Shown here piece by piece: positions 24,001-64,000 of a stretch of DNA of 64,000 nucleotides; positions within the stretch are counted from its first letter, which is position 1; every line of letters begins with the position of its first letter. Position numbers and translations under genes: made by a program. The stretch lies in the NCBI GenBank assembly GCA_051294375.1, contig CM119267.1, positions 1,875,448 to 1,939,447 on the forward strand, in the 5' to 3' direction. This DNA comes from Paraspadella gotoi. Lineage: Eukaryota > Animalia > Chaetognatha. The notes beneath the pieces were generated by a model that was not told the DNA's origin, did not search any database, and saw only the letters and a program-made list of their open reading frames with translations.

Positions 24001-24032
<32 letters not shown>

Positions 24033-24130
24033 GTCTTTCTTCTTTTTCATTCTTTCTTTCTTTCCATCTCTCATTTTCCCCTCAGACTTTCTCAGTATTC
24101 CAGATCCAACGTTTTTGAGAATTTTTGCTC

Positions 24131-24161
<31 letters not shown>

Positions 24162-25194: not shown

Positions 25195-25247
<53 letters not shown>

Positions 25248-29438: not shown

Positions 29439-29491
<53 letters not shown>

Positions 29492-30452: not shown

Positions 30453-30483
<31 letters not shown>

Positions 30484-30581
30484 GAGCAAAAATTCTCAAA
30501 AACGTTGGATCTGGAATACTGAGAAAGTCTGAGGGGAAAATGAGAGATGGAAAGAAAGAAAGAATGAAAAAGAAGAAAGAC

Positions 30582-30613
<32 letters not shown>

Positions 30614-41441: not shown

Positions 41442-42265
41442 ATGGAATCACTATCGAATAAAAACATTTTTGACGCTAACATAATTACTCCGTTTTGCAT
41501 GTTAGCGGTCGGTTCTTCAAATTCAGGTTCATAGAAACTAGTTAATTATTTATCACTACTTAAAAAACATGTTGTTGTTTTTTTTTACAGGAAAAACTAC
41601 ATTTGTTTCAAATCTCATAAAACACAGCGGGGAGATAGTCGACCAACCATTTGGAAAAATACTAATCTGCCATCAAGCGAACGGAGACAATTATAACAAC
41701 GACAACTTTCCGGCGCCTCTTTCCATCAAGGAGCGCCATCGCTGGAGCAAGTGGAAGATCTTGCCGAAACTCCAAACAGCGTCTTGATCTGCGACGACTT
41801 GGACAACTCGGCCGATCTGAACTACGACCTCTTGCAGCGCATTTTTTGCGTAATCTCGCATCACTCGGTATGACATAAAAATTAATATAAATATCATTAG
41901 ATTGTTGATTAACTTTATTTTTATTGTTTTTTTACTTTAGAGACTAAACTGCATCTTCATACTTCATAATCTTTATTCGAGACAAAATCCAGTTTTGAGG
42001 ACTCTAAATTTAAACGCCTCTTATCTCGTCTTGACCAAGTTCTCCCGCGATCGAAGCGTCTTTCAAGTTTTAGGAAGACAACTGTATCCTGACAAGCCCA
42101 ACCTGCTCGTCGAGTGTTACGTCACAATCAAGAAAACTCGGAACATCAGTTTCCTTATCTATTGATCGATTGTCATCCCCATAGCAAGTCGAAACGTTAA
42201 AGATCAGATCGCGGATCTTTCCCTTCGAGGCGCCCTCTGTTATTTACAGAAGCAAGACGTCGTGA
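41442..42265 (+). CDS. A32/FtsK-like genome-packaging ATPase, 3 exons (introns 41527-41590 and 41868-41940)
   Basis: Spliced: MESLSNKNIFDANIITPFCMLAVGSSNSG|KTTFVSNLIK (Walker A), VLICDDL (Walker B), IFCVISHHS|RLNCIFILHNLYSRQNPVLRTLNLNASYLVLTKFSRD (Polinton ATPase SHH...RTISLNA.Y...RD pattern). Frameshifts near 41730 and 42130-42190. Confidence 0.92.
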
Positions 42266-42639
42266 TGAAGCCACGGAACAATCTGGCCGCCAGAGAGCGT
42301 TTCGCCACCCAGTTTCCGCTTCTAAAAAAAGTTAACAAACTCCCGCGCAAACATCAAAAAGCATTTTGGCGTTCAAAAAAATCGAACGAAGCCTGCGTAT
42401 GTCTCAGCGAAATATGCTTGAACGTTCTCAAGCGTAACATACCGGTAACCGGAAGTCAGTTATCTCGATTACGCCCATATAAGAAGCAGATGCACGCTCT
42501 CTCTCTCAGAAGTTCGCCCATGAAACACCGAAAGCGAATCGTACAAAAAGGAGGCATGTTGTCTACCCTGATTTCCTTACTAGCTCCCTCTATCATCAGC
42601 CTCATCGTCGAAGCGGTCGCCAGAAAGAAAAAGAAATAA
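42265..42639 (+). CDS. Conserved small basic Maverick protein with QKGG followed by a hydrophobic segment
   Basis: CLSEICLNVLKRNIPV...LRPYKKQM...IVQKGGMLSTLISLLAP matches the Maverick EICLNILKGNVP...QxGGFL protein. Its ATG overlaps the ATPase stop (TGATG). Confidence 0.8.
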   Translation: MKPRNNLAARERFATQFPLLKKVNKLPRKHQKAFWRSKKSNEACVCLSEICLNVLKRNIPVTGSQLSRLRPYKKQMHALSLRSSPMKHRKRIVQKGGMLSTLISLLAPSIISLIVEAVARKKKK

Positions 42640-42642
42640 ACG

Positions 42643-43593
42643 ATGTCGTCGAAGCCGTTGAGATACGCGGAGCGCATGTTTCTCGTTTCCGCAAAGGATT
42701 TGAAAAAACTCGGTTACAACGTCCCTCCCACCGTCTCCTCCAATCACATCGTCGATTCCTTCGCCCCTAACCCTTCGCCGATTCCACCCAAGAACGTCAA
42801 CATTCCCGAAGATTGTTACATGGTTGACTTTAACAGCGAGTTTCTCAAGTCTAAGAAGCTCGCGGAGAACTTGGTGGAGAGCGATTGGAGGGGATTGGAA
42901 TCGAGAATATCGCCGCTGATCGAAAACATTAGCAAGGATCGATTGATGCGAAACAGAGACAGAATTAAAAGCGAAATTCTTTCTCTCAATGGAGTAGAGA
43001 TAAAAAAAGATAGAGTTTTCGTGGATGACGTTTCGGTGGGCGACGTCGATGAAATCTCTAATCACTTGTCGTACACAAAGTCCATCTCCCCCGATCAAAT
43101 TCAAAATTATTTGTTTTGGTTGAAAGATCAGAAGCCATCGAAAGAAGATGTCTCTCTCCCCGAGGACGTCAAAGAGATTCCTCAAACTTCGATAAAATTA
43201 GATTCCTCACCCGTCGTTAAAAAATCTGGCGTCATTTCGACGCCGGTTAAAAAGGCGGGAATCTCTCAGACTCCAACCAAGAGAATTAACGCCCTATCTT
43301 CAACGCCGGTCAAGAAANNNNNNNNNNCCGGAACGCCCGTTAAAAGACCGGCGCCGTCTTCACCCGCGGTCACCACTCCGGTTAAGAAGATCTCTACCCC
43401 TACCAGAAGAGAGGAACCGAAAAAGAAGACCGGGAGCCCCTTTAAAAAGAAAGTCACGACAACGACAACGACGTTAAAAAAAGCGCCGACGATCACTTCT
43501 CCGCCCAAAACTAGATCCAGAAAAAAGACGGTAGATACGGAGGATGTCCAACAAAAGAAAAAAGCTCNNNNNNNNNNATACCTCAGTCTCTGA
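42643..43593 (+). CDS. Basic protein with repeated (S/T)PxK/R motifs, putative DNA-condensing core protein
   Basis: 316-aa ORF containing two 10-N gaps, with STPVKK, TPTKR, STPVKK, GTPVKR, TTPVKK, STPTRR, GSPFKKK and TSPPKTR. Confidence 0.7.
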   Translation: MSSKPLRYAERMFLVSAKDLKKLGYNVPPTVSSNHIVDSFAPNPSPIPPKNVNIPEDCYMVDFNSEFLKSKKLAENLVESDWRGLESRISPLIENISKDRLMRNRDRIKSEILSLNGVEIKKDRVFVDDVSVGDVDEISNHLSYTKSISPDQIQNYLFWLKDQKPSKEDVSLPEDVKEIPQTSIKLDSSPVVKKSGVISTPVKKAGISQTPTKRINALSSTPVKKXXXXGTPVKRPAPSSPAVTTPVKKISTPTRREEPKKKTGSPFKKKVTTTTTTLKKAPTITSPPKTRSRKKTVDTEDVQQKKKAXXXXYLSL

Positions 43594-44713
43594 CAAAGAG
43601 AGAAAGAACAAAACGATAGGCGACATTTACTACGACGCGAAACATCCGGCAGGCTTTTCCACCGTATCCAGAGTATTTCAAGCTGCTCGTCGACGAGACC
43701 CATCCATCGTCAAGTCTGACATACAANNNNNNNNNNGCGCCCAAAGAGTATTTACTAATTATAAACGCCCCCCTAAAAAGCTATTCAGAAAATATTACGT
43801 TTTGAGACGAAATTCTGAATTCAGCATCGATTTAGTCGACGTTCAAGCCTTGAAGACCCGTTCCAACGGGTTTGCCTACTTTTTATCTTGCGTAGATGCC
43901 TTTAGCAAATGGGGATGGTGTCGTCCGTTAAAAACAAAGACCGCTTCCGAAGTCGCTTCCGCTTTCGCTTCCATCATTGAAGACAATGGTTTTCAAGCCC
44001 CTGACTTGATAGTCATGGATCGGGGCAGAGAGTGGAGCGGAAACTTTGCCAGATTGATGGAGGCGCTGGAGATCGAGGTCGTATACCCGCCCAGCGGAAT
44101 GAAGGCTCCGTTGGTCGAATCATTCAACTCGACCATAGAATCTTATCTTTACAGAGTCATGTACGCCATGTCCGACTGGAATTTCGTCAAGTATCTTCAA
44201 CCCTGCGTCAGCGCCTACAACGCTCGTCCTCGAGCGTCGCTTTTTGGAATGTCACCTGCCTCGGCCCATCGAGCCTCGAACGAGAACGAACTGAGAGAGA
44301 AGTATTTGAAAGCCCGTCTCGCCCATCGCGCTAAATACGCCGGCCGTCGCCCAATTTTTAAGGTCGGTCAGTCAGTCAAAAGAGTTTTGAAGCGGGGTCC
44401 ATTTTCGCGAGGATACGCTCAACGTTTTCAGGATCAAATTTTTCGCATCTCTCGCGTACAGCGAACGGTGCCTCCAACGTATAAATTAGAAAACTCGCGA
44501 AAGACGTACTACGATCATCAGCTGGTCGCCGCCAAAGAACCTAATCGCCCTCGAGAAAAACGTTACTTTGTAATTAAAACGCGCAAAACCGACGGTAGAA
44601 AATTAAGGTCTGGAAATCGTTCCGGTCAGTCGACCAGCTACTTGGTCAGATCGAGCGACTCGGATCGCGGGCGTTGGATGAGTCAGGAAGATGTCGATCG
44701 CCTCGTTGACTGA
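43544..44713 (+). CDS. Retroviral-type (rve) DDE integrase of Maverick type
   Basis: IYYDAKHPAGFS N-terminal motif; IDLVD, CVDAFSKW, MDRGREW and VESFNSTI supply the D-D-E; FKVGQSV...FSRGY...YKL SH3-like tail; degenerate chromo-like YLVR...W at the C-terminus. Confidence 0.95.
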   Translation: MSNKRKKLXXXXTSVSDKERKNKTIGDIYYDAKHPAGFSTVSRVFQAARRRDPSIVKSDIQXXXXAQRVFTNYKRPPKKLFRKYYVLRRNSEFSIDLVDVQALKTRSNGFAYFLSCVDAFSKWGWCRPLKTKTASEVASAFASIIEDNGFQAPDLIVMDRGREWSGNFARLMEALEIEVVYPPSGMKAPLVESFNSTIESYLYRVMYAMSDWNFVKYLQPCVSAYNARPRASLFGMSPASAHRASNENELREKYLKARLAHRAKYAGRRPIFKVGQSVKRVLKRGPFSRGYAQRFQDQIFRISRVQRTVPPTYKLENSRKTYYDHQLVAAKEPNRPREKRYFVIKTRKTDGRKLRSGNRSGQSTSYLVRSSDSDRGRWMSQEDVDRLVD

Positions 44714-45716
44714 TTCCGACTTTTACGTCATGATGAGTAGCGACGGAGTCGATGACAGCTTCGTAGAGGGCAACGTCAGCGGAGATTTTCGTCTTCGTTT
44801 ACCGGATCCCATTCAACTGGACGGCGGAGTTTGGGAATGCGCCTTATTAGAATTCAGTTACATTAATCATATCTATAATGTACTCAACCCTGAGGAAAAC
44901 TATATATTAATTTTCGACTGGCTTTACAAAATATCCGACGACCCGCCCATCCCAATTTGGGGAAATTTCACCTGGATTAAAATCCCTAATGGCAACTATC
45001 GAACCGGCGATCAACTCTGTCAAACTTTGAACAAATTATTGACAAAAGCGGTTCCTCGCCTCAACGACGTNNNNNNNNNNAATTCCATCAACAGAAAAAT
45101 ATCGTACAAGATCGCCAACGAGTACGTCACCTTAAAAATTGTCGGCCCCGTTCTCTTTCTCATGGGAGTTAACACGGAACCCGCGAATGAAAAATACTTC
45201 ATAATTGGTAAAACGAAACGGGGTGATAAGTACGATTATCAATACGTCAACACCGACGGAAAGACGGTCAAGGAAATNNNNNNNNNNGACAATCCAAATG
45301 TCGTTTTAGTCAGCGCTAATGACGACAAGGATGGGGAGATGGAGTTGGTGGTGCAAATGGAAATAAGCACGGCCCTGATGGTATATTGCAACTTCCTTCG
45401 ACGTTGGAGAGTCAGCAATTCTTACAGCTCTTTATTGAAGATTGTGCCCCTAGAAAGACCCAAGGAAGAAGAAGCCCCATCTCGCAAACTGTTTCACATC
45501 AAATCGCCCATATATTTGGAAGTGGAAAGGAAGCACTTGGACGTCCTGCACATGTCCATCAAAAATTTCTTTGGTCAAACCATAGTTTTTCAAGTGAGTC
45601 TAGGCATTTTTTTTTCTATAAAAACTCAAAGTTATTAACTTTTTTTTTTATTTCAATCGCAGGAAGGATTGACTTGGGCCTTACTTCATTTCCGTCGAAA
45701 AATACCGAGATATTAA
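44691..45716 (+). CDS. Minor capsid protein (penton, PX), 2 exons (intron 45594-45662)
   Basis: FYVMMSS...GNVSGDFRLRLPDPIQLDGGVWECALLEFSY, IPNGNY, LMVYCNF, LLKIVP and PIYLEV. Splicing CAA|GTGAGT...CGCAG|GAA adds EGLTWALLHFRRKIPRY*, restoring the terminal LHFRR motif. Confidence 0.9.
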
Positions 45717-45724
45717 AAAAAAAA

Positions 45725-46216
45725 ATGTCGGACATAAACTTTCTCCATTTACCGTTTCATCGATCCGCTCCCTCTAGAGGCGCCGTCTATCCTCTTCGTC
45801 GTCTGGCGCCTTCTCATCCGTATCAAGCGGTGGGCGGGGGAGTGTCGAACGTTTTCGCTCGTTTAGCTAAATTTATAGTACCGTTCTTTAAAAAGGGAGT
45901 ATCTTTGGTCAAACCGGCTATTAAAGCGGCCGCACCAGCGGTGAAAAAAACTTTGAAACGAACCGGCGACGCCTTAGCCAAGGAAGCCGTTTCTTCTGGC
46001 ATTTCCGCCTTGACCGACTTAACGACCGGACAGTCGCCTAAGAAATCTATAAAGAGAGGAGCGGATCGCGCCAAGGGAGTGGTCAAGGATAATCCTAACC
46101 GCACCAAGCGTTCGACTGTCAGAAGGCCTTGTGACGGCGCACTCCACGCCTGCTTTGGAACAAGAGAGCCCGTCAATAATAAAAAAAAAAAAAATAAAAA
46201 AACAATACTTAATTAA
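45725..46216 (+). CDS. pVI/cupiennin-like amphipathic basic virion protein
   Basis: YQAVGGGVSNVFARLAKFIVPFFKKG...KRTGDALAKEAVSSGISALTDLTTGQSPKKSIKR matches the Maverick QxGxG...LFR...P..K.G...DVL.G...K.S pattern. 3' end uncertain. Confidence 0.75.
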   Translation: MSDINFLHLPFHRSAPSRGAVYPLRRLAPSHPYQAVGGGVSNVFARLAKFIVPFFKKGVSLVKPAIKAAAPAVKKTLKRTGDALAKEAVSSGISALTDLTTGQSPKKSIKRGADRAKGVVKDNPNRTKRSTVRRPCDGALHACFGTREPVNNKKKKNKKTILN

Positions 46217-46325
46217 CCAAGGCAAGACGCTCTCTCAACAAGGGAAAAACGGCAAAGGATCAAGAAAAAAACGTAAAAAGATTTAACTCCTCGCTTCAAA
46301 AATATCCTTTATTAATAAAAAAAAG

Positions 46326-48047
46326 ATGGAAGATAAACTTTTTCGCGCGGGCAGGCATTAAGAGAGGCCGAGCCTTGCGTGGAAGAGCGCCCCTGAACGT
46401 CTTCGAAGGCGTCTCACTAATCCATCCTTATACTTAACCTATCCCATACCACTCTCTGCTCTCCTGATCTGCGACACTAATCAGCATGCGATCGACATGC
46501 ATCCTCACTGTCTACGTACTAACAAATCTAACGCCGTACTGTCAAGGGAATACGATGCGGTCTACCACATTACTAATTCACTGTACGAATCGCCGCAGCA
46601 TCACACCTCCCGACTGCGCCCTAACAAGAAGCACCGGCCCTACAGTACGTCCCATCCCTCACTGTTTCACGGGCAACGAGGCCGTTGTATCACGAGAGCA
46701 GTCCCTATCACGCGTTAGTTTCTGCGACCAATTCGCTGTGACATCGCCGAACAGCAATACCATTCTTGTTCGATCTTCCTCCCTGCAGCGAGTTTTCTAG
46801 ATATGAACGGATCTTTTTTTCATCGTCGATCTCTCGATAACTACAAGGCCGGATGCGCAAATTCCGCGAAGTAACAGACGCCGCCACTAGCGTTGGCTAT
46901 AATCAATAACGTTTTCTTCTTCGATCTTTGAAAGCGTGACCTTTAAAATACAATTCCAGAAAACCTGAGCGATAATTTTCACCTACGCCTTTTCCTCATA
47001 CTTCAACACGGCTTCTCAATTAACTCGTGCGGAGGCTCAAGCTAAGTTATCCGTCGGGATGGGATCTGGACGACAATTTTCGCGGCGAACGAAGCTGCAG
47101 GCCGCCGGCAACAAATTCCGCCTTCAAGACACGCTCTCAATGGTTTGGCCGCGAAATTTGGTCAGGTTGATCGGATTCGTCAATCACGCGGCATGTGGAA
47201 TCAAAATAAATTACTGGGATTCCGCAAGTCAACGCCTCTCTCGACGTTTGTTCGTAACAAAGATAATTTTGTGTCTACTTAACGCGGGGCGACCACCCTC
47301 GGACTTTAAGTTGAATCTGAAACAAATGAGGCTCTACTGAGAAAAGTTGGTGTTTACCTTCGATCAATTGAGTATTCGAACGCCGAACTCGCCACTCAGA
47401 GCCGCCAAGTATACGTTGCGATCTAACTCGACTCGCGCATTACCATAGCGGCGGTCGATGAGAAGACGGCGCCAGTTCGAATCGGTTTTCCCCTTCCAAC
47501 ATTTTTCCAGATTTCATACTCTGTTGCTTCATCGAGACCGAAAACTACCATCGGAAGCTTTCGCTAAAAATCCTTTAATTTTGAAAACTTTTCCTTCAAT
47601 CTCTCGAAGCTGGTCGTCGAGTCGGAAATCTACCTCCAATTGGCATTTGGCATAGTCGTTGAGTTTCTCCAAGACCTCCAAGGAGAGAGGACTTCGCCCT
47701 CGCCTATTACCATCTTTTCGAGTCGGACCTTTCTAAAATTGAACGTGGTTTGCCCATAACTCAAAAGATGTTCGCCGACGGGGGGTACGCCATATACGTC
47801 ATGTCCAACGTCCGGTAAACGGACCGTTTCGCCGATCACCGTGCTCCCCGACAGATCGTCAATTCGCGGATCGAGGTTGTTGATGTTTCTTCGGCCGATA
47901 CACTAATCAGCTTGCCCCGCTCTCTGCTATCTACATGGTAAAGCCCTATTCTCACAGACATACAAAAGCTTGACCCTCCTTCTTGTTCAGCGAGATAAGC
48001 GGCACGTATTTCGCTGGATTCACGCGTCAGGCTCACCAAAGACTTTT
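46326..48047 (+). pseudogene. Major capsid protein (PY), heavily frameshifted as assembled
   Basis: Lies between the pVI-like gene and the protease. Fragments IINNVF/SSIFESVT (~46900-46940) and YAFSSYF (~46985) correspond to NNxLxSLF.V and YPYRAY. C-terminal LFSEISGT-like stretch near 47985. ATG follows an A-run at 46326. Confidence 0.65.
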
Positions 48048-48057
48048 AAAAAAAAAA

Positions 48058-48530
48058 ATGGATTCGAGTCGGATGAATAAAATTGACCGCAGTCGGATCC
48101 TCTACGGTAGCGCAATCTACGGTGGCATTTTTGCGCCTCTATACTACTCCCCCCCTCAGTCGAACCGTCGATCGTCTTTACGAATTTGGACCCCGATTAA
48201 ATTTGAGGCTCGCATTGGCTTATTGTTTGCAATGCCGACGAGCATAGATACTTCGTCATGGACGCTTCGGGCGATTCGCGCGATCGATTTAAACCCCCCC
48301 CCTTATCTTTCGCCGATCGAATAAAAAACCATAGTTTATTCCAACGTGGGTCATTCAGTCGGAACAAACTCAAACTTGCTTCGCTCATTGTCTTGGTCTT
48401 TTTACTCTTTCTGGCTAGAGGGATGTCGGCCGAGAGGGATCGTCGAGGAGGTCTACGATTTATCCCCGGGTCACGGATACCATGGAACACGATTTTAATC
48501 GCCACTCTACTGAATCAGATCGTTTGGACG
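48058..48530 (+). pseudogene. Adenain-like (C5) maturation cysteine protease, frameshifted as assembled
   Basis: Fragments YGGIFA, HWLIVC (~48213), RYFVMDASG (~48246) and WVIQSEQTQTCFAHCL (~48347-48395) give H-D-Q-C in adenain order. End approximate. Confidence 0.75.
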
Positions 48531-50864
48531 CCGAAGACGGACGAATCGTGCCATTTTTCGCCCGCCCCAATAATTACTAGTAAAGACTATAAAGCAAAGA
48601 CATGTCGATCGAAGAGATAAATAAATAAAAAAATGGCTAAAAGCAAAGAAAGGTGGAGCAGCGACGGGCGTCGTAATAAAAGGACGCAATTTTTGGTGGA
48701 AAAAAGAAAAAAATGCGGAAAAAAGGAAAAAAATGCAAACTGCGGAAGACGCAAGCAAGAGGGCCAAAAAAAAAATGTCACGGAATTACGCAATGACAAT
48801 ATGTCTAGACTAGACTTGTACAAAAAAAACTTGATTGAGATTTTGAACATTAAAACGTTACTCACCGATATTTCTCTCTCTCTCTCTCTCTCTGTCTTCG
48901 ATGATGACGATGATTAGATTTTGGAGGGACAGCGACGGGATGCGAAGCTTCTATTCTTTCTTTATCTTTAACTTAACTGTTAAAAAAAAGGGAGAGAGAA
49001 AAAAAAATAAAATTCATCAAAAAAAAAATGGTCTAAACTGCGGGGCGCTGAGTGAGCGCCGATCTCGATTGAGCGAAAGAGAGAGATATCGCTTCATCGA
49101 AAACTTTTTTCCATTTCTCTCTCTCTCTCTCTCCCCCCCTTTTTTTTTTCTTACCCATTATCTAAACCAAACATCGCCGTCGCCTCTCACAATATCGCGG
49201 CGACATTAAAAAAAAAAATAAATCGGCGGCAAATTTTTTTTTTTAAAATTTCGATAGTATATTTTACCGATCACATCGATATATCTCTCTCACTTCAATC
49301 TCCGAGAGACGACGCCTTTCTACCATCGGCAAAAAAAAAAAAAAGGAAAAAAATGTCCTCAATTTTTTTCGTTTTCCGTCGGTGAGAGGATATCGATTTC
49401 GTGCCACTCAAATCTAGAGGACCATCTCCGTTCAAAATTAAAGAAAAACGGATTAAATTGGAAAACGATCCTCATAAGAGCCATTTGGCTAAAGCAGTGG
49501 GGAATGGCGGGCTCTTAGGTCGAACGCTTACCATTTGCTGACGAGGCGAACTTCGCTTACCTCGAGAATCGACTAATAAATGATGGGGGTCCAGAACATT
49601 TCGCGGAGTCGAGCCACGGTTTAAGCATTACTAAGCGATAGATGAGGCGATAATAGTCGCTCTGTTCCGAAACGATTCCAAATGGTGCGACTATCTGCCG
49701 AGAGTGGCGGTGGAACGAGCTTCGCGTTTGTAGATGCAAACGACGGCAAGGGGCGTTTCCCCAATCTCCGTGCACCACGGGACGCCCCTGGAAAATCGGA
49801 CAACGGGTGCCCCATAACGGTGGTCCTTCGGTTCCTGGAGCCAGAAATTTTCGTACATTGAGGTTAGTTTTTTTTTTTTTTCTCTCATATATATTTTTTT
49901 TTAAAAATAAACCAAAAACCTTTTTAACTCGCCTTTTATGTCTCTTCGTCTCTCTCTCTCTCTATTTTTTTTTCTATTCAGCATTTTATCTCATCAAACC
50001 GTCACGGCCTGCTCTCCTGAGGACTCGAACCGTCTGCTTGACGATTGAATCAGGAGTCGCCGGCGAGAGAAGAGATGAGCCGATCCTGGGAGAATTCGTC
50101 TCGGCGTTTTGCCGGGTTCCGGGTTCGGGGAGAGGCCTAAATCTCTCCTGATAAACGCCGCGATCAATTCGAACCGCGGCGGTCGGGCGTCCTTCCGACG
50201 CCGGCTCTTCCTCGGAAACTTTCCTTCGTGGTCGAGCGGGTGATGGAGTGTACGAAGAAGAAAAGTCAGTAAGCGCCAAGAATAGAAATCGTGGCTGTCA
50301 CCTCTCTGTCTTCTTTGTCTTTTCTTCCTCCACCTATTATCCTCCTCCCTTTCCTACTCCTCTCCCATCTTATTCAACTCCTCGCTCGCTCCTCTCCTCC
50401 CCCTCCCTCCTCCTCCTAACCATTCTACCGGCACCGACGAAAAGGCCAAGGGGATCGAAGAGAAAGGACCGTCCGTCGACAGAGCCGACCTATGACGAGC
50501 GACGACGGCACGACGACAGCCACTCAGAAGGAGAGGAGAAGAAACAACGGAGGGAAAAAGAAGACAAAAAAAAACGAAGAAGAAAAAACGAGAAGAAGAA
50601 GGAAGAAGTGGCCAATGTTATTGCGATCAACTTTGAATCTGTTTAAAACGATATATCTTTTTGAAATCTGTTTAAAACATATCATTTTTCTCTATCTCTT
50701 TCGCTGTCTAACTTTAATAGATCTTCTCTCTCTCTTCCTCTCTCTTATCTCTTTTGGTGCGAAACGAAAAAAATAATTTTTATAATAACAATTTAATTAA
50801 TGTACAATACAATACATTAATTTAATGTTATAATTTCCTTTTTTCTTCTTTTTTTTCTCGAACA

Positions 50865-53800
50865 ATGAGCTGCCCCAACGATCCCGGGCGCGATAATCGG
50901 CGCCAGAGCCAGGGACCCGCAAATTTAGACAGCCAGAATCTCTTTGTCGTCCGAAGCGGCGGCACGCTCTTGTTCTTGAACGAGGCGTTTTGGAGGTAAA
51001 TTTTCAGATCCTGTGTTGAGCTGCCTCTGAGTCCCGTTCTTGACGGGAACGAGAGTTTTTCAAGGAATTCTAAAGATATCGTGATTCAGTTGGGTTTTTT
51101 GATCGTGGCTCGGCATGTCTCCCTTGGCCCGAAATCTCTTGCGCTCGTCTTCGACTTTGCGTGCCGCGCAAAAGCGCGCACGCAAGTCCTCTCGGCGCGC
51201 GCACGCTTTGCGTGCCGCAGGGGGGGATCGCACCTCTCGCTGCAGCGGCTTGTTCAGCCTGCGCAGCGGTGAGTCGCCGCGGCTTGGTCAGCCCGCGGCT
51301 AATGTTTTCCGGAGGAAGAAGATTCGCGTTTCTTCTTCTCTCTTCTTCTCTCTTTCTTCTTCTTCTTCTTTAGCCTCGGAGTCGGAGGATGCATGACTGA
51401 AGTCACTGACGTCGAGAAGAAAAGTTTTTCGGTCTCCAAATTGGCGCATTTTTCAAGAAAGTCGTCGCCAATCGGCATTCGCCGATCGAAACTCGAGGGG
51501 TCGAGGAGGCGAGGAGAGGGAAGCAACTGCCCCGAACGTACGTGATACGACTCTATATCTCCGCGCCACCGTCTCTGCGCCCGGGAGGAGGTCGGAGGTA
51601 AAATCGTCCTCGGTCGTCTCGTCATCAGTCGTCGTGCTTTTAGCGTCGGCCTGATCTCAGGGGGCGGGTTGGACCGGCTCGTCGAGCACGGAAACGGCGT
51701 AAATTTCGGGCAGCAATGTTACAAGCTGCTAATTTATCGTCTGCTTTCCGCCAATGTTCGTCTACGAAAGAGAGAAAGAGAAAGAAAGAGAGAGGATTGA
51801 GGAGGAGAAAAAGTTGTTGTAAAACAAGTTAAAAATGAAAATGCGAAAGAAGAAAAAGAAGAGAGAGAGCAGAGAGAGAGAAAAAGTTACTTTTGAAAAA
51901 ACACGACCCTGGCTTCGGATTTCTCTCTCTGTAAGCCAAAAGAATCGAACGCTTTTCGCAGGCGGCGTTGTTGACAAAGACGAGGATGCTCCAAGGGATA
52001 TACGCTGGTGTCCAACATTCCGACCACTTGCCGAGGATCTCGCCAAAGTTGGATCGTTGCGCGTCTCCTTTGGCGATACTCAATGACAACAAACCGCCGT
52101 CCGTGGTCCGTGCGAACGAAACGACCTCGGGTCTCCCCTCGCAATCCGGAAACACCCTCTTGACGCCTTCGCCCCCCCATAGGTAAAATCTGCCATCAGC
52201 AGCTTGCTAGCGTCCAATATGGCGACGCCACCGAATGATCGGCGAGAAGTTTTGCCTTGACTCGCGCCAACTTGACGACTGGCCAAATTCGGCGAAACGA
52301 CGTTGAACCGAGTGAAAGTCTACTCTGGACGACCAGCTTGGGAGAGGTCGTCGGTGAACTCCGGACGCAGCTTGACGGTTTGACAAAGAGCCAAGCGATT
52401 CATTATCGGTATCGATCCTGCGGGCGATGACGATCGGTTAGTTACATTATTAATTATTAGCTTTAATTATTAACTATTAGTTTAATGTATTAATTTATTA
52501 GTTAATTATTAATCTAAATTATCTAATTAATTAGTTAATTAAAATTCCTAACTCCGAAACAGGAATTGCACACACACTTGAGAAGCGTCTTTCATGAAGG
52601 AAGTTTTCGCCAGTCTTTCTCTCGCGGCGTGGGAAATGAATCGCACGAAATCCTTCTATTAAAACGGGCTTTTCTGTCTGTACATTCGATCGCCGCAATG
52701 AAAGGGTCGCTGAGTTCCGACCAAACGACAGGGCGAAAGCGAGACTCTCTCTAGTCAAAAAGTATCTCTCTATGTCCAGTCAAGCAGGCTATCAACTTTT
52801 CCGTTCAACGCCCACTCTGTGAATTCGTACTTTCGTAGCCAGGGAGACGACTAACGGACTGAGTCTCGGAGTGCGAAGCTCTCTTTCTTCGGGGAGAATT
52901 GGGAAAGTCTTTTCATGGCGTGATGAAGATTGCTCCGGAGGGTTGCGCAGATCGACTTCGAGAATCAAGCCTTCGCCATCTTTCGTCCCGACGCGTGCAC
53001 ATTGCGCGCCAATTTCCGGGCCGTACAACTCGCTTCGAATCTCTTTACCAAACGATCATTGGACACGAAGCGTAACCGGGCGTTAAGGTAAGGCCAACCG
53101 CGGACAACTGGCGTACCGTAATAAACGAACAGGATGTGAATAAAATTTGTTTTTTTTTTTTGCCCCGCTCTTTTTTATTCCCCATTCTATTCTTACAGAT
53201 TGTATGCGCGTCCACGTGAACGATCAAACGCGTCGCCGAAAATTCTGGGGATCGTCGTCGTTGCTTAGCCGGATTCGTTCGGACGACACCGGAAAAAAAA
53301 TCGTGAGTTGAACGGGGAAACGAACCCTCCCCCTATAAAGGACGCAGAGATATGTTAATTATCATTAGATTTTTTTTTTTTTTTTTTTTGGGTTTGTTAA
53401 TTTATCTCTTCTACCTGAGCCATGGGATTCGAAGGCTAAAAAATTCTTGACGAGTTTTTTAAGTAGAAAATGAAGCTTCTATTTCCCAGAGAATTGAAAG
53501 CATGATGTCTTGAACTGAGAGAGACGCAGAAAATAAATATAAATAAATAAATACATAAATATCTCTTTCTCTTATCTTTCCTCATCTTAATCGCCAGCTT
53601 CCGCTGACGTAATAGGCTGCGGTTCGAGATTGAAAGTTTTGTCTGTCATCACACCTGCTAGTTCGAAACTATATCACAGAGAAATAGAGAATCCAGTTCT
53701 ATAAAAAATAGAAATAAATAAAATTGCGCCCCTCTTATTTCTTAATGAATTTATATATATATATATTCTCACGTGTAAATAACAGATATTCGCCAGAGTG

Positions 53801-56042
53801 TCGAAGCGACGAAGGCGCTCCCAGATCCTCAATTATCTCGAGTATTCCTCTTCGGATATCAATCGCTGCCGCCATCTTCGTTCGAAATTATTTCTCTCTT
53901 CGGTGCGGGTCGCGAAAAGGCGAGGTATCGTTTCAAAACGTCTCGAGACTGATGTAATTGAAGGGCCATGGTCATCTTGAACGCATGACAGGTCCGATCA
54001 GACTCTCGCGCCTGAAAAGGAATCGATTGACGTGAGCGTTAAGTCATGCGGAAACTATGATCGCGGGTGGACTCTTGCCTCGACAAGTTGCGCCAAACCT
54101 CTCCTCTCGACGCGCCGCAAATGAACAATGTATTTTGAAGCATTCTTTCGCCCGCGAATCCACGATATTTTCCCAGGGATCTGTTATCAAAAATTGTAAG
54201 AGTCCGGATGGTCAAGTAGCGATTTTTGTGGCAATCGCAACGAAAAAACCTCAAGCCTCTTTCGCCCTCATCATCCGTCTCTATTTTCGTCGTCGTCGTC
54301 GTCGTCGTCGTCGTTTCATCGTCGTCTTCGTCTTCTCGTCCCTCGTCGTCGACGCGCCTTCCGTTCTCGTACCACTCGATCGGTAACAATGATCGCACAA
54401 AAAAGTTGATGTCCAGCGGGTGTGAAAGGCGTTGCCCTTGGCCAATTACGTTGCCGATGTTTCTAGACCATCTTTGTTGGCTCCCACGCGCAGGCTTGAG
54501 AATGAGATTTGGGTCAAACCTTTCCGGCGCCTGATTAAAAAAAAAATTTTGTAAAGATGAGTCGAAAGATGAAAACGGCAATGCTTTCTTACTTTTGATG
54601 GAAAGCTACATTATCCATTTGCCCGATGATTGGTTTTTTGCGCGTTACAAAATCAGTAATGTGCTTTGAAACGTATGACTCCGAGCGATGATCGTGATGT
54701 CGCGTAACCTTTTCACCCTCCAGATTTCTCTTTTTGCCATGAAGAAGACCAAAAATCGGACCAGCTCAAGTTGAATGTCGATTCGGCTCTTCGTTCATCA
54801 CCCATTGGGAAGTTCTGTCGCAACAAAGCGCGATGATGATCGGAGTCCAGGCGCGGCCCGTTGAAGGAAGCGAAGACCCGGCGTTCGTCTCCCACGTATT
54901 TTCTCACGGGAAAGTCGTCCGAGGGTAGGGAAGATTTAATCTTATCGGCGAAGCTGATGCCGATAACTTGGTCCGATATTTCTTTCGCATCCTTGATCCT
55001 TGTTTACCAAGGATGATATTTGTTTGGCAATTTGAGCAACTATCTTAGCGTGAAGACTTTTCATGAGGACAGGAAATCTTATCCAAGACAATCGGCCTCA
55101 TCGCTCTTCATTTCTTTTATCTCCCTCTTCTCTAGGAACCGTGTGAACTGGACAGACATCTCGTCCTCAATATCGACGCGTAGGCCGACAGTAAGCTCAA
55201 CTCGGCGTGAAAAAAATTTTCCTGCGCGTCATAATGCCAACATTAAGTTCCTTCCGGTGATTAAGTTTCTAATTGGGCCGTCGCCGTACTTCTCGCCCGC
55301 CCATAAACGGAGTGAGCCGAAAACGTCGACGACTAAAGCGTGCTAAAGCAGGGACACTTTGATGCACAACGAACGACTTCCGTGCGATATTACCAAGACT
55401 GCGAAGAAGTAGTCGAGAAAGGTTGGTTATAGAAACCAGATGTCGTTCGCTATACTTGAAACGTTGTATCTTACATGCTCGATTCTTTTTTTAATTATTA
55501 AAAGATTACAAACTTTTAATATCCATTGGAACAGATTCGTTCTTATATAGAGACTTCTGCTACGGTATATATATTCTTTCTAATCCTTTAATCCCCACCT
55601 TCTTTTTAAAAATTGCATAAACGTTGATGCATAAATCGAGATTGAGTCTCTCGACGTGCGCAAAGGTGTTGGGCGTGGCCGGACAAGGTACTTGTTCTAA
55701 ATTAATTCTATGCTGATATTTTCTGTAACTACTTTCTAATTCAGGGTGACTGCGAGGTTTATACAGGCATGCCAGAAGAGCCAACTTCAAGCATATGGGG
55801 CTGCGCGATTTCACATTTACGACACATTTTTTATGAAGTAACCATTTAGGGGTAGGGAAGTGATGACCAAAAAGAGTCGTCTTTCCAGAATTTGGATAAA
55901 AACCCGCCAAGGTCAAGTCGGCTCGCTCAATTTTTGAATAGGAAATGTTAGACCCCATTTCGACTCTGTCGGATATTTGATTATACAGTTTAGCCAACAT
56001 GGTCGATAAGATTTTCATGATGCTGTCGCTCTCGTATATCAC
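50865..56042 (-). CDS. Protein-primed family B DNA polymerase, multi-exon and error-laden; true start probably further upstream
   Basis: N-terminal GSNI...TPKWLLHKKCVVNVK..ICLKLALLACL...INVY; exonuclease FD.NLIL (~54520); DSLFLCDIV; DIMLQF..VKIEL; LR|GGFVS; VDANNL|YG (motif A); GLILEVDL; KCVCNSCFG (motif B, ~52555-52580); AILDASKLLMADFTY; a DTDG-like motif C (~52100); LDTSVYPLEHP; RAKG; DDKR-like end. Confidence 0.9.
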
Positions 56043-59000
56043 GACGCTTCTTTGATCGAAAAAGAAAGAAATGTAGTTGTCGTCTCTTTCGTTATAAAAC
56101 TTGACGGAAAAGCATAAATGAATCTTTTAAAATCTTTCTCTTTTTCAGTTCTTTCTTTATTATCGGTAAAATTTCTTTCTTCAAGTGTCTAGTCTCTATC
56201 TCGTATGTTTCTGTGGCGAGAGAGGCACGAGTGAGAGAGAGAGAGAGAGCCACTGTGTGATAGAGAGAGAGAATGGTGAGACATGAGTTGGAACAAAAAC
56301 TCCAGACGACGAGGACCAAGGAGATGAAAAGGAGGAAAGGAAGAGGAAGAGGAGGAGAAAGAAAATAGAAAAAGGAAAAGGAAAAAAGAAAAACAAAGGG
56401 AAAAGAAGGTTGAGATTAAATGACAGACGGGAGAGGAAAGGAAAAGAAATAGCATTTTTAACGATTTTTATTATTTCCCACACTCCGCGAGAGATCGATC
56501 CAAGGTACACCAATATACTTCAGAATCTATCGTCATCCGAATAGCCTCATATGGCTATTAATATCCTGTCACCATTCCATCGCACGTTCCTAAGCAGAGA
56601 ATACTTGAAGACGGAACCTCATCCTAGTCTATTCATCTCTCTGACTGCGTCTAAATTTCTTCTAGAATTAGTCTATCGTCCCATACGTCAAATCGTTCGA
56701 CCTCAGAAGACGTATCTTTATCGTGGTTCTCCCTAGAGACATAGCTCGCCTCACCGGACCTCTTTCTCTCTCCCAGTACTCACTTCGGCAGGTCTCTCTC
56801 GATCGTGACACTGCTGAGCCCTAGAGCCATTTTCCTCTCATCGTCTTGATGAGTAGAGCAAAATTCCGCCACCCATGCTCTTTCCTGCCCTACATTCTCT
56901 AGCTTCTCGTTCAACCTCTTCTCCCTCCTGCTCTCCTATATCTAATACGTGCTCTCCTCATGTCGTCACAGCCTGCTCTCCTGCTCAAATCTCCTCACTC
57001 CGCACACTTCTGTTCTGGACCATTCGTCTTCTCTCTCCCCCTGCTCGCTTCTCGGTCGTCTTTTCGAGGCTGACAGTTGAAACTTGACCTCCGTTCATCT
57101 TGTCTCGTCCGTCTCTCTCTTCCTCCTCTTCTTCTCCTCCTCTCTCTCTCTTCCTCTCCTCTCCTCCTCACCTCTCTCCTCTCGCTGTTCGATCTCCTTG
57201 TCCCGTACCGGCGGGGTCTGTTGCACATCGTGACCAAGACGAGTAAGGAAGCTGGCTCCGCCCCTCTGCGGATGCGGATGAAGAACGAGCCCTTGCCTGA
57301 GGACGTGTGCGCCCTATGGCACAGGGCTCTCCCAGCGTCTAGCTGCTCGCATGAAAACCTCTCGTAACGGTCGGATCGGTCCTCGAGAGATTCTCGGAGG
57401 CGATGCGCGAAAGCAGCGTAGTTGAACGAGGCGAGTGGCGTTATAAGAAGATCGCGCGCCGATCTTCGCGGCAAGCGTCCGCCGATGGCTATGAGGAACA
57501 GCCCTGAAGGAGCTCCGCGCTAGGCCGTCGAAGCGGAAACGTCCAACTCCATATGGAAAATAACATGGCCAGAGCTGGGCTTGTGGGGAAGAGGGCGTCT
57601 ATGGTGCGGGAACTGTTTGCTCTCTCCGACGACGATCCTCTTGCTTGGTTCGGACTACCTGACTTTCTCGTTATTCTCTTCCTCGCCAACTCAAGTCGTA
57701 AGCTCGGCTCTCCATTCGTTCGATCCCTCGAGGCTCCTCCGGTTTGCATCGCCGATAAGCGTTCCGAATAAGTGATATCGCCTCCTCTGAAGTAATAGAA
57801 TAATAGTATCTGAAAATGGTAAAAAAAAAAAATAGTCATTAGAGAAACAATTTAAATTTCTATTCTTTCTTCAGACATTACCTAACGAAGAATTCAATTC
57901 TATTTTTGCCCATACTGCAGAATAAACTCGGCCGAAAGATAGACAATATCTGTTCCGTTAAAAATAACAACGGTGGTTATTAGTTCAGTGTTAGATAGAC
58001 ATCGAGTAACACATATAAGTCTCAGTCAGAGCGTATAACTCTACGGTTGAACCTCACAAACATTGGAAATAACAACAACTCGAAGAACACCACCACAAAA
58101 TGAAATCTCCACAAAGTACCACTCTTAAGTAGATCTAAATGATCTTCGGACGTCCACTGATTCTTACTCTGAGTCCTAACGTAATTTTTTTAACGTTACA
58201 TTGATATTTCTACTCGGAAGGAGCGGAGCGCTCTATCCAGTGAGCGCACGTGCACCATTTCGAGCATACAAGTTTGTAAAAAACGGATAAAGAGATCTCT
58301 ATCGTTATTTGACTTTTCGTTTTACCATTAAATCAATTATATGAAGTGGCATAATCATTCAAGAATCTTTATCAAATCAAGCTGATTTGTGATGTTAAAT
58401 GAGGCTCGAAGCTGCCCATCAATGTTATCTAGGATGTTGAGTATCACTACTAATGGTACTCTGCACTTACGCAACGTAGAAATACCATATCTCTCAAATC
58501 TTTTAATTTTTAGCATTTGAATTAAGAACCCTGGCAATATATGCAGGTCAATAGGATCAACAGAAATTTTTTTTCTTTATTGGACAAGTGAGAAACGAAA
58601 TCGTAGTTATCTCAAATTATACCATCAGTGAAATAATAAATACACTAATAATATATTATATATAATATAAATATATATATGTCGTTTATTTCGAATTCAG
58701 TATGATTCAGTACAGTTCAAGTGAACATCAAGCAATCACTTAGGTCTAGAAAAACATACAAATATGTGACAAAGAACAAAGGATATAATATATGGAGTAT
58801 TATGATCATCTGTAACCAAAAAAGAACCATTCTCTTACCTGAGTCCATCGACCCTCCGCTTCCTCTCGCAGTACCACTCCTCGCGCTCCATCCCGACATT
58901 CCATACTTCCTCGTCCACGTCTCCCACTCTCTTTCTTCTTCCCGTAACAAGACAATCCAGAGTCGGTCCTGTTGACCGCCACTTCTTCACATACTGCTCC

Positions 59001-59717
59001 ATCTCCTCTCAGAAGAAATTGTCGCACGCTCTTCTCTTCGGACACGAGATCTACTCCAGCATGGACAAATCTATGGTTTTCTGCTCCCATTTAGGGCTCT
59101 ATATGTTAGGTCCTTTCGGATGCATACGTTTTCCCGGGTTCCGTTTCAAAAAATGGAGATAGAAGAGAACAGAGAGAGAAGTAGTGGAGCAAAGAGGACG
59201 TGCTTGATATATGATAAAAATCCTAACTCTGATAGATGCGCGAAGTGCTGCGAGGACTAAAAATTAATGTAGAGGTGAGAGAGTGTGAGAGTGTGTGTGT
59301 GCGTATCTGCTCGTAACAGTGAAGTACAGGAATTTATGCCGATCGACTCTAGTGTCCCGAGATCCTCTCTTTCGTCCCTCCAATTATTTCATAAACGCGT
59401 CTGAAAAGATCAGATAGGTTCTGCGTGCGCGCCCGAATATCTGTAAAGTGATTGTTAGCTTTTTCATCTTCCGCTTTCGCATACTAGCAGTATTGCGATA
59501 GCAGAATTCTAACCTAACAGATACCAATCGTATCAGGCCGAGAGATTGACAGTTTTTTTATCGACGATATTTATCAACAAAAGAGAGTCGAAGTAAACTA
59601 GATTGATAGTCAGTATGAAGAATATAGCTTGGATCCAGACCAAAGTTTACATAACCCAAATATTGATTTTATAACAAATATCAAGAGCTTAGATTGTATA
59701 TGATTAGCCATCTGTTG

Positions 59718-60545
59718 TTAACGGAAAACATTGAATAAAGATATAAAGAGATCAAATTTTGAAGGTACCACTTGTAAGATCGGATACAATGATAAAGAAT
59801 AACCTTGATAAAAACGACAGCTACAATTCCCTTCGTAGGGATCGGAATAAAAAATATGTGGTGATTTAGTATTACAAAGCTTATTAACTTCTTTCTGCCA
59901 GTGTAGATGATATCGACAAAATAAGTTTTTATTGTCATCCTTAAAAATATTTTTGTGGGCGATGGAATCGTATCGCCATGACATACCCTCGTCGTTTAAA
60001 AGAGTAGAAAGCGAAAGACACGCGTCGTATCGATTAAACCATTCGCAAAAATGATGCAATTCTCGGCCAATCGCGCAAAGAATGATAAACATGTCCTTGG
60101 GCAGGTGATCGCGGTAATCTTGCTCCGGAGAAAAAACAAACTGAGTTAATTTCAAACCGGTAAGAACGTCCGGGATGGTAGTAACAGATCTGACGACTTG
60201 CTCCATGGAGACGTACAAAAGTTGAAGGTTCGGTGCCGAAGAGAGACTCATGATTCTCACGATGTCTCGCTTAACTCTGAGCCAGCGCAAAGGAGGGTCG
60301 AAACCGTAACGAAGAAACGTCGCGTTAGCCAGTTCGGTCGAATGATGAAGAGGATAAAAGTTTTCGTGGAAGATTCGATCGGCAGTCGTTAAAGTCTGCA
60401 AAAGACGCTTGACTAAAAAGCCATAGTGCGATTTGTGATAGTTTCGAGGAGGGGGTGAAACTTTAAGACCCGACCCCGGCGTTAAGTACCACTTATCTTT
60501 GTCCGAGTCATCTTCGCATAGTTCATCTTCCATGGAGTCGTTCAT
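59718..60545 (-). CDS. 275-aa orphan accessory protein with a Cys/His-rich C-terminus
   Basis: Clean complex ORF directly downstream of the PC4-like gene; FCRYHLHW...CSCRFY. No family recognised. Confidence 0.7.
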   Translation of the reverse strand: MNDSMEDELCEDDSDKDKWYLTPGSGLKVSPPPRNYHKSHYGFLVKRLLQTLTTADRIFHENFYPLHHSTELANATFLRYGFDPPLRWLRVKRDIVRIMSLSSAPNLQLLYVSMEQVVRSVTTIPDVLTGLKLTQFVFSPEQDYRDHLPKDMFIILCAIGRELHHFCEWFNRYDACLSLSTLLNDEGMSWRYDSIAHKNIFKDDNKNLFCRYHLHWQKEVNKLCNTKSPHIFYSDPYEGNCSCRFYQGYSLSLYPILQVVPSKFDLFISLFNVFR

Positions 60546-60716
60546 CTTGTTTAATCAACCTAAACGATTAAGCACCCAGCGCGCGCGCATTGATTATTTA
60601 ATGAAGCATCGCAGTAAAAATGATAACATATTTTTTTTTTAAATTCAATCAACCATCGTTTAGATACATAACTTTTTTTTCATTTTTTCTTCTTATAAAA
60701 AAAGAAGAAAAAAGTT

Positions 60717-62292
60717 TTACATGGCCTTGAGAATTTTTTTGACCAACTTAAGCAACCCTCTAAACTCGTCGGCGGATAAAGAAAGCCCGGCCAAATTTGA
60801 CGTGACGAAAAGAAGCCCGAGCGCGTTGTCGAAAAAGTAAGGCCTTAAAGCGACATTGGCCTTTGACGTTTCATCCTTTGACTTGTAAACGCTAAGGGAT
60901 ATCCCCAAGCTTTCCGTGATGGCGTAGCGAGGCCCGTTGACAATGTCGGCAACATCGCTCAGACTCTCCAGCTTATTCAACTCGTCTTGAATGCGAACCT
61001 CATAGAGTTGAACCAAACGCTCCATCTCGTTCTTGTTGAGAACGACGCGAGTGACCGGCTCAATCGCCCGAGATTTAGACGATAAAGAGTAACCGGTACC
61101 CCCGTCAGGAGCAGACGACGACCCCGCGCCATTTTGAGAAGGAACGAATCTTTCCTTGTGGACCACGATACCGTTGTTGTCCGAAGCGAGAGTGACCATT
61201 ACGTAAGTCGAAAGGGTCCAGTAATCGCTGGGCGTCAACTTGGCGCTGCGATGCATGTCGTCGAGTCCTCCCCCTTCGCGCAAAGTCGGCTGACGAAGGA
61301 GAGCCTGCGGTCTAAAAAAATATTTTTTTATTTACTTTTCTTTCTCTCTTTCTTTCGTCGGTTGTTTTTACAATTACCTCTTGCAAGGCTTTTTACCACC
61401 GCCGCTCGGAGACGCCGAGACGTTAAAAGGCCCTGATGATGATGATGATGATGCGTGGGCGCCAATAGCCTCGTCTTCGCCAAATTGCTGATTCGACTGG
61501 TGTTCTTCGATGTAAAGGTCATCGTCATCGTCATTCATCATATATACTAACTGGCGTCTAATTAAATACATGATAATTTTTTTATTTTTTAAAAAATAAA
61601 CAAACGAAAAAAACTTACCTTTTCGCTTTGTCCCGTTCATCTTTGAGCTGTTTGACCTCTCTTCTCAAATCGATCAACTCCTTTTGAGTGTCTCGTAAAA
61701 CCCCGCAAGGAAGAGAATGGTAGAATCTTTGTTTTGAATTTCAATTCTAAAAAGATTTATTATATTAATACATAATATAAATAATATATGTATATATATA
61801 TTACTTGTTTTTATCTAGGACTTTGAAGGAGTTTTCAAAACTTCTGGCCCTGGCGTAAGTCGTAAATTTATATTCGTGACAAATTTCACACAAAGTGATA
61901 AACTGTATAAAGAAAAAGATATTTTTTACTATTGCAATATCAAAGAGAAAAAAAATATAATTACCGAAATACGGCAAATGGCGCAGGTAGGATTTTTGGT
62001 AGAAATAATTTTGTCAAAACAAAGAGAACACAATGGTGACCTAATAATTAATTAATTAGTTAATTAGTTAATTAAACAAACGTATAAAAGAAAGTGTCAT
62101 TATGCTCATTTGTTTTTTTTATAATAAAATTACGCGCTCTCATGGACATTTAAAAAACTAAAATAAAAAGATTTATGTTCAAAAAGTTACTTGAACGCAA
62201 CATATATTTTACTATTTTGTTTAAATTCCGTGAAACAAATTGGGCAATTTAGAAAAAGAAGAATCTCCGTTAAATTGTGAAAAATCCTCCAT
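60717..62292 (-). CDS. Multi-exon gene: RING finger, coiled/acidic linker, tandem PC4-like ssDNA-binding domains
   Basis: Exons give LNCPICFTEF (~62250) and GH..CSLCFDKIISTKNPTCAICR (62040-61965). Introns at 61903-61964, 61747-61804, 61558-61618 and 61312-61377; the last two splice in frame (phase 2) into ORF 60717-61283. That ORF's ISLSVYKS...VALRPYFFD...GLSLSADEFRGL fits the PC4 pattern. Confidence 0.7.
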
Positions 62293-62640
62293 ATAAAAAA
62301 GAAAGAAGAAAAGTTAGAAAAAAGAAGAATACGATCGACGTAGATCCGAGATTCAAAAGTCATTTTCTTTTATAGGTAAGAACATTGCAAAATATAACCT
62401 CACCTAGTTGAATGAGAAATGACCAAGTAAATAAAATAATTTTACTAGCTCTCGATAATCTTTTCAGTGTAAATAGGCGAGTAAAAAAAAAATTCTTTTA
62501 ACTGGCCAAAAAAAATAATCTCTTATCAATGATTTTTTTAAATTAAAGTCCGGTTTATTTCTAGTTAGGACTTCTTTCTCTTTTTCGTCTTCTTCTCTGT
62601 CTCTGTCTCTGTCTCTTCTCTTTCAAATTTTTATCATATA

Positions 62641-63443
62641 ATGATGAAACACAACCTTTTTTGTAGTGTGTTTTTTCCTGGGGATCGTAAAGGCAGCAAA
62701 TAGGACCCGAAGACGTGAGTAATTGTCTTATTTTAAATTTACATACTAAAAAGGAACAGAATAATTAGGTAAAAAACAATGGGCCTGGTGATTTACTGCC
62801 GCCGTGGAAACGGCCGTCGTCGACGACGCCATTGATCACAACGACATCAAGCAGGCCGTCGTCAACGACACCATTAATCACAACGACATCAAGCAGGCCG
62901 TCGTCAACGACACCATTAATCACAACGACATCAAGCACCTCGACTAAAAGACCGACAAAAACTACGATTAAATAACGAGTCCAACGACATCAACAACACT
63001 ACAAACAAAATCACGACAAATGATCGACTCGATAAAACAACGACAATGGCAACAGCAACAACAAGTAAAATGAAACAACAACAAACCGAACGAGATAATA
63101 CAGAAACAAAGATGTCATCAACAAAGCCAACAATGACAATAACAACGACCGAGAAAAAAAACACAACGACATGGAGTCACAAACAAACGATGACAATGAC
63201 GAGGCCAACGACGATGACAATGAGACCAACGACGATAACAACGACGATGACAATGACGGAGCAAAGCCCGACAACGACGACCGAGAATAAAACCACAACG
63301 ACGATGACAATGACGGAGCAAAGTCCGACAACTACGACCGAGAATAAAACCACAAGTATGATGACAATGACGAGGCCAATGACAACGACGACCGAGAATA
63401 AAACCACAACGACAACGACGATGACAAATCCAAATACAATGAC
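62641..63443 (+). CDS. Mucin-like Thr/Ser-rich secreted glycoprotein (runs into N gap; several frameshifts)
   Basis: Signal-peptide-like MMKHNLF..FFLGIVKA after one homopolymer correction; donor C|GTGAGT at 62715. Three 42-bp repeats encode RPSSTTPLITTTSS; 57-bp repeats encode TMTMTEQSPTTTTENKTT. Repeat copies differ mainly at synonymous sites. Confidence 0.6.
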
Positions 63444-63544: not shown

Positions 63545-64000
63545 GGTAAGGCCAAGCGACTGGCGTAACCGTAACTAAAAGAAAAAATGTGAATAAAAAA
63601 ATTTTTTTTTTTGCTTTTTTTTATTCCCATTCCTTCTTACAGATTATTGGCGTCCACGTGAACGATCAAACGCGCCGGAAATTCTGGATCGTCGTCGTTG
63701 TAGCCGACTTCGTTCGATGAACCGGAAAAATATCGTGAGTTGACGGAAACGAACCCTCCCCTAATAAAAGAAAGAGAGAGATTAGTTAATTATCATGATT
63801 TTTTTTTTTGTTCTCACTCTCTACCTGAGCATGGATTCAAAGGCTAAAAATTCTTGACGAGTTTTAGTAGAAAATAACTCTATTTTCACCCCCGAGAATT
63901 GAAGCATGATGTCTTGACTGAGAGAGAGAGAGAGAATAAAAAGAGGAATAAATAAATAAATAAATAAATATCTCTTTTCTCTATCTTTCCTCACTTAATC
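63545..64000 (-). CDS. Second, cleaner copy of the PolB segment at ~53086-53590
   Basis: Colinear with copy 1. Spliced reading: DIMLQFSGVKIELF...FLAFESMLR|GGFVSVNSRYF...RLIVHVDANNL|YGYASRLAL, with introns 63761-63824 and 63575-63640. Confidence 0.9.

Follow-up and report, generated by a model that had tools for sequence, protein, structure and literature searches.

We analysed a 64,000-nt stretch of the genome of the chaetognath Paraspadella gotoi (GenBank assembly GCA_051294375.1, contig CM119267.1, forward-strand positions 1,875,448 to 1,939,447), called here the window. The region between ~39.9 and ~62.8 kb is occupied by a compact two-module element. The element is an integrated Maverick/Polinton, as both features that give this group its name, a protein-primed DNA polymerase (PolB) and an integrase, are present. 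The PolB gene lies on the minus strand (51400..56230, located by exon homologs and a profile path). The retroviral-like integrase gene lies on the plus strand (43535..44713), carries no intron, and matches Pfam rve above the cut-off (E 1.1e-8) and the protein homolog P0001 (E 8.6e-21). PolB, a packaging ATPase-like gene of three exons (41442..42260, +) and a minor capsid (penton)-like gene of two exons (44694..45716, +) are interrupted by short, mostly AT-rich segments with GT...AG ends, and so are a small gene and a RING finger and PC4-like gene of at least five exons (60717..62300, -). The features of the segments suggest that they are likely ordinary introns removed by the host spliceosome. 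An earlier sequence-only reading had proposed a Maverick/adintovirus-like element with many short GT-AG introns in its core genes, and the results below support it.

Sixteen candidate introns were catalogued: two in the ATPase-like gene, one in the penton-like gene, seven in PolB (ten in these core genes together), four plus one possible in the RING-PC4-like gene, and one in the small gene. Twelve are 58 to 74 nt long and the rest measure 82, 93, 129 and 135 nt. In the main copy 14 of the 16 have GT...AG ends; the remaining two have them in a second copy of PolB. The candidates have the form of U2-type introns (GT...AG with a pyrimidine-rich 3' end), and their AT content is 65-91% compared with 40-73% in the flanks. 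All intron sizes given by the sequence-only reading were found again, except that its 64-nt PolB intron has this length in the second copy only, the main copy having 82 nt; the segments it listed are all present, and it missed the candidates at 51762-51890 and 62041-62133. Its proposal of an unusually narrow size class is not supported, three candidates being 93 to 135 nt long. The two introns it reported in the host Lim1 gene are present (604-2092, 1489 nt; 2310-2663, 354 nt), and two introns are no measure of the host intron-length mode. The gene name Lim1 is taken from that reading; a Lim1-type homeobox indicates an animal host.

The first ATPase intron (64 nt, phase 1, 41527..41590, +) lies inside Walker A and the second (73 nt, phase 0) at 41868..41940 (+). 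The penton-like intron (69 nt, phase 0, 45594..45662, +) is found 17 codons before the stop. The PolB introns, all on the minus strand, are lettered a to g, and the motif names given to their sites are those we take to apply. Intron a (62 nt, 54531..54592) is at Exo II, b (74 nt, 53699..53772) at Exo III, and c (about 73 nt, ~53515..53587) has its canonical donor in the second copy only. Intron d (82 nt, 53333..53414; 64 nt in the second copy) is at a conserved RGG-type motif and e (about 66 nt, ~53131..53196), with a canonical acceptor in the second copy only, is inside polymerase motif A. Intron f (135 nt, 52418..52552, acceptor unsure) is at polymerase motif B, and g (129 nt, 51762..51890, 84% pyrimidine) is loosely placed, probably at KxY. 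The RING-PC4-like gene (-) carries introns at 61312..61377 (66 nt, phase 2), 61558..61618 (61 nt, phase 2), 61747..61804 (58 nt, phase 2) and 61903..61964 (62 nt, phase 0), and a possible 93-nt intron inside the RING finger (62041..62133). The small gene carries a 72-nt candidate (57810..57881, -). A strong donor-like site follows a short open reading frame (ORF) at 58838 (-); its acceptor may lie 29 or 93 nt further downstream. An AT-rich patch at ~55517-55569 is not counted as an intron, since relatives align across it with a frameshift.

A second, partial PolB copy (63545..64000, -) follows an assembly gap. It is 77.5% identical to 53087-53592 and retains all three introns in its span: c, d (63761-63824) and e (63575-63640). 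The sequence-only reading had named absence of the segments from other copies as evidence against introns; this copy keeps three of three.

At all nine junctions outside PolB, one phase leaves a frame of 17 codons or more open to either side, and reading through the segment meets a stop. For PolB, an alignment based on homology only, and blind to splice sites, gave 12 long gaps, of which five fall on candidates a, b, c, d and f; the gap at a begins exactly on its GT. The chance that a gap of fixed length meets GT...AG within 3 nt is 1.5-2.7%, or ~0.02 per junction. When excisions were scored by homology at two junctions of the second copy, the best had the lengths expected from GT-AG, 64 and 66 nt, at both, and the GT-AG excisions themselves rank 33 of 1539 and 2 of 1769. 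A block-shuffle null (0/100) was rejected as support because it is too lenient: the antisense strand beats it too. An 893-nt short-read contig from run X9 contains the 66-nt segment 61312-61377, unskipped, and differs overall by 6 letters and 5 gap bases; the segment is therefore real DNA, and the contig is silent on splicing. Sequencing runs with this stretch (9 of 11 rows, three studies, none recorded as RNA) are silent on expression. Runs X6 (RNA a guess) and X7 are apparently one data set and end at 61240, before the first intron. These two runs carry a second variant of 61016-61173, which over 155 nt shows 6 substitutions and a single in-frame gap of 3 nt.

One PolB exon has 555 protein homologs at E<=0.001, 150 of them listed, and the PolB profile path covers 56259-52179. 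The full-length homolog P0023 gave a model with pLDDT 86.8 whose top PDB match is phi29 polymerase (E 1.6e-17), and it matches adintovirus PolB folds at E 1e-53. Word searches with a PolB exon and with an ATPase exon found no homologs. An endonuclease VII-like domain lies directly before Exo II in this PolB family (window 54531-54720; Pfam E 1.4e-6 in homolog P0172). Upstream of the first PolB exon, 56230-57500 is low-complexity, and relatives carry long acidic N-terminal extensions; the PolB start and further introns may be located there.

On the scale of profile conservation, six of the seven PolB introns reach the 92nd percentile or higher (p 5e-5 against the whole profile, 1.5e-4 against the catalytic core). 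Their sites are Exo II and Exo III, the RGG-type motif, motifs A and B, and KxY. For introns a, d, e and f the sequence itself has motif residues directly next to the splice site; the placement of c and g is looser. An AG/G proto-splice context is clear at only one of the seven junctions, that of intron d, and therefore fails to explain the bias. Most simply, the bias would reflect a survival filter: an intron inside a catalytic motif could disappear only through precise excision, but in a loose loop an intron could be deleted or absorbed.

Some PolB homologs carry a marker insertion, a W-I-x-F-P word followed by cysteine pairs, which is partly visible in the window. Among the 61 listed representatives that span the site, none of the nine with the marker has a full-length frame, compared with 21 of the 52 without it (Fisher p 0.021). 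Frames of the marker relatives stop at profile positions 612-644, 682 or 802. Their tails often resemble intron read-through; repeat or poly-T length varies within a cluster and the upstream part is conserved. In one cluster of 14 members, 13 end at 422-428 aa or shorter, on contigs of up to 11 kb. The frame of P0172 continues across the sites of introns a and b, and that of the window continues across the 612-632 sites where marker relatives stop; the different stop sites suggest separate intron gains. The protein sequences thus suggest that introns may have been gained repeatedly and independently in this PolB clade. First introns of the relatives cluster at the end of the endonuclease VII-like domain. 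Four near-identical 890-aa PolB N-terminal halves (P0124, P0193-P0195) are found on 18-22 kb contigs, which are probably whole intron-bearing elements. Viral scans and a genome scan returned no DNA of the marker clade, and a metagenome scan returned four loci, all of other types and intronless or decayed, of which L005 has no insert at the sites used in the window. When the introns of the element were compared in 105 pairs, best scores were 28-43 on low-complexity matches (z up to 6.4); the same intron across the two copies gave z 11-15. It was concluded that there is no introner family within the element.

Several results weigh against the reading of the segments as introns of a Maverick, and against parts of it. 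Of the 12 homology-only gaps, seven are noise, and that alignment failed to recover introns e and g in the main copy. Splice-signal pairs numbered nine on the sense and three on the antisense strand, which is not significant (p = 0.15). In an end-pair permutation on the noisy copy GT-AG beat 60 control end pairs in none of seven regions, and in a strict excision ranking GT-AG was in the top-scoring set in none of eight tests, partly because the split codon is unscored. Five main-copy junctions gave poor GT-AG ranks (114-1679), and a splice-constrained alignment of the whole PolB gene ended after the first exon. No spliced read or contig was seen, and four runs aligned to 60560-62250 showed no joints; gaps in their coverage carry no weight as evidence. 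The placement at motifs was partly motif-guided, which brings in circularity, and site g is loose. Introns of the relatives were judged from proteins only, and short contigs may also truncate their frames. A quick tree, from which 25 of the 150 hits were dropped as too short, grouped the window with two marker relatives (SH-aLRT 94) and gave no strongly supported clade. Terminal inverted repeats were searched for in the window and none was found, the right end consisting of tandem repeats and an assembly gap; nor was a target duplication seen in the window. Finally, the assembly is indel-noisy, which the sequence-only reading did not point out. The PolB profile path requires ~21 frameshifts, and the capsid and protease regions are broken too. 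In the host Lim1 homeodomain, one exon matches Pfam positions 1-45 of 57, the next exon has no match, and the domain end is garbled. Contigs of two studies share single-base insertions relative to the window in one 160-nt stretch. Because of the garbled host homeodomain and these shared insertions, the frameshifts cannot be read as decay.

The remaining genes follow the two-module layout. The capsid, protease and ATPase labels come from motif resemblance or position, and general library scans confirmed none of them. A 498-aa open frame with no Pfam match (39865..41361, -) is divergent from the ATPase-like gene, with 81 nt between them, and likely belongs to the element. In the ATPase-like gene, which has frameshifts in the assembly and an approximate 3' end, Walker A and Walker B patterns were read from the sequence; we take them to be those of a packaging ATPase. 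Its exons, searched singly, gave no Pfam match and no database homolog. Next on the plus strand are a 124-aa basic ORF without Pfam match (42265..42639), which resembles a small conserved gene of Mavericks, an ORF of about 316 aa (42643..43593, an ORF call), and the integrase. The following two-exon gene (44694..45716), called from its ORF and its junction, has no match in any library and is presumably the penton gene. A basic ORF (45725..46110, +) is presumably a core protein, a heavily frameshifted region (46325..47900, +, ends approximate) presumably the major capsid gene, and a further frameshifted region (48058..48620, +) presumably an adenain-like protease. No intron candidate was seen in the major capsid-like region, and a Pfam scan of the capsid-type and protease-like genes gave no match. 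In the minus-strand module, an intact 274-aa ORF (59718..60542; ORF call and library scan) lies beside the RING-PC4-like gene. The RING assignment is weak (zf-RING E 0.02 on a 22-aa exon). The PC4 part is a presumed one, the last exon having no match in our searches, and a single-sequence fold of the PC4-like exon has low pLDDT (34). Open frames are kept in the integrase, the penton-like gene and the 274-aa ORF.

At the right edge of the element, 62812-63425 consists of tandem repeats of 42 and 57 nt that enter the gap; they may belong to a terminal repeat or to a Thr/Asp-rich gene. To the left of the 498-aa frame, 37500-39700 is GC-rich with short repeats and several short ORFs, and the element may extend into it. 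Elsewhere in the window there is a perfect 2010-nt inverted repeat (24668-26677 / 28009-30018) with further nested arms (23784-24173 / 30441-30830), either a fold-back element or an assembly artefact.

We consider it quite probable that the locus is an integrated Maverick/Polinton whose core and accessory genes are cut by short GT-AG segments, which the host spliceosome likely removes; splicing in vivo is what we infer from the segments, their ends, the read-through stops and their presence in the second copy. Host polymerase II would transcribe the element in the nucleus, with the segments then taken out by the host spliceosome. Without splicing, PolB and the ATPase would stop inside motifs, and host splicing would be needed to make the polymerase or the packaging motor. 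Dependence on host splicing, as the sequence-only reading had it, is thus likely in view of the read-through stops and split motifs, while its suggestion of stage-specific control by splicing found no support. As the ancestral genes were intronless, every intron is a gain. Intron gain in this lineage was presumably stepwise, at a time when selection still acted on the element, and other branches of the same PolB clade may have gained other introns at other sites. Their short length likely follows the minimal intron class of the host and a capsid size limit.

We also put forward, as a tentative but real possibility, that animal Mavericks which are still mobile, and which intron-blind surveys have overlooked, form a whole clade that goes on acquiring spliceosomal introns independently, that these introns, like inteins and group I introns, are fixed preferentially in catalytic motifs, and that replication is gated by host splicing. 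If true, the clade would offer a natural setting in which to follow how a virus gains and keeps introns.

A reading compatible with intron gain in a Maverick is that the introns are kept for a function, as a stage or tissue splicing switch or as mimicry of host mRNA against silencing. Intronless RNA is silenced in other systems. The split catalytic motifs, such that unspliced RNA would yield no active enzyme, and the presence of introns in both modules fit this idea. The integrase and major capsid-like genes have no intron, however, and the sites differ among relatives, which fits gain and drift. We regard a retained function as doubtful.

It is improbable that the locus is a dead copy in which the segments were inserted after integration by slippage, small transposons or host introners. 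The heavily frameshifted PolB, capsid and protease regions and the lack of terminal repeats in the window could be read this way. Precedents are also at hand: dinoflagellate introners are described as having mostly entered viral elements after integration (PMC11957031), and PMC8097293 reports short Genewise 'introns' in degraded vertebrate copies. Set against these, no intron family is shared across the 105 pairs, three introns are common to two copies, and the integrase, penton-like and 274-aa frames are open. The indel noise, moreover, extends to the host Lim1 homeodomain, and the single-base insertions are shared by contigs of two studies.

Nor do we give much of a chance to real introns in a domesticated or immobile element, gained as in any host gene. 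That neither terminal repeats nor a target duplication were seen in the window would agree with immobility. The whole compact two-module layout with its integrase is retained, however, at least two sequence variants exist (the second copy, and two variants in runs X1 and X6), and the wider clade shows the same pattern. As explanations of the segments, errors of a noisy long-read assembly and AT-rich patches arising by chance are very improbable and largely refuted: the assembly is indel-rich and the permutation tests gave GT-AG no edge, but a short-read contig of run X9 contains the 66-nt segment, the same three segments are in both copies, and the segments exceed the homolog length and lie at conserved motifs.

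The integrated Maverick with introns in its core genes can be compared with several known systems. Intronless core ORFs are a described trait of these elements, outside the definition of a Maverick/Polinton, and the present element lacks it. In our literature search, which left subscription journals and Repbase (which may annotate Polinton exons) outside its scope, no account was found of animal Mavericks whose core genes carry spliceosomal introns. Endogenous viruses are stated in one large survey to 'not contain introns', and prokaryotic gene callers were used on that ground (PMC10120064). This supports the earlier suggestion that ORF-based mining would fragment the element. A Maverick survey likewise filtered for intact intronless ORFs (PMC8097293). 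As surveys assume intronless ORFs, intron-bearing lineages would be scored as fossils or missed; for example, none of the nine marker-bearing relatives among those listed has a full-length predicted PolB. The origin and retention of spliceosomal introns are directly testable in such elements, and the catalytic-motif bias gives a specific prediction.

Adintoviruses of the Beta PolB class share with this family a PolB divergent from PF03175 (matched by none of six homologs at E 0.001). Splicing is unmentioned in the sections available of Starrett et al. (2021, PMC8502044). Group I introns occur in PLVs (PMC12220804). The 134 intact vertebrate Mavericks all have intronless ORFs, and the paper reports that introns were not observed (Barreat and Katzourakis, 2021, PMC8097293). 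They share with the element pPolB, integrase, two gene modules and capsid-type genes, whereas here PolB and the ATPase-like and penton-like genes carry candidate introns. Nematode Mavericks have the same core gene set and also contain introns; their core genes are called intronless and the introns lie in captured cargo genes (Widen et al., bioRxiv 10.1101/2022.07.12.499685), whereas here they lie in core genes. Dinoflagellate maverick-polinton-like proviruses carry introners (Gozashti and Corbett-Detig, PMC11957031). Those introns are also of spliceosomal type, but they belong to repeated introner families in a protist host, while the element studied here is in an animal and shows no family. 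Introns are thus known from dinoflagellate elements and from nematode cargo genes, and the core genes of this animal Maverick depart from the intronless description.

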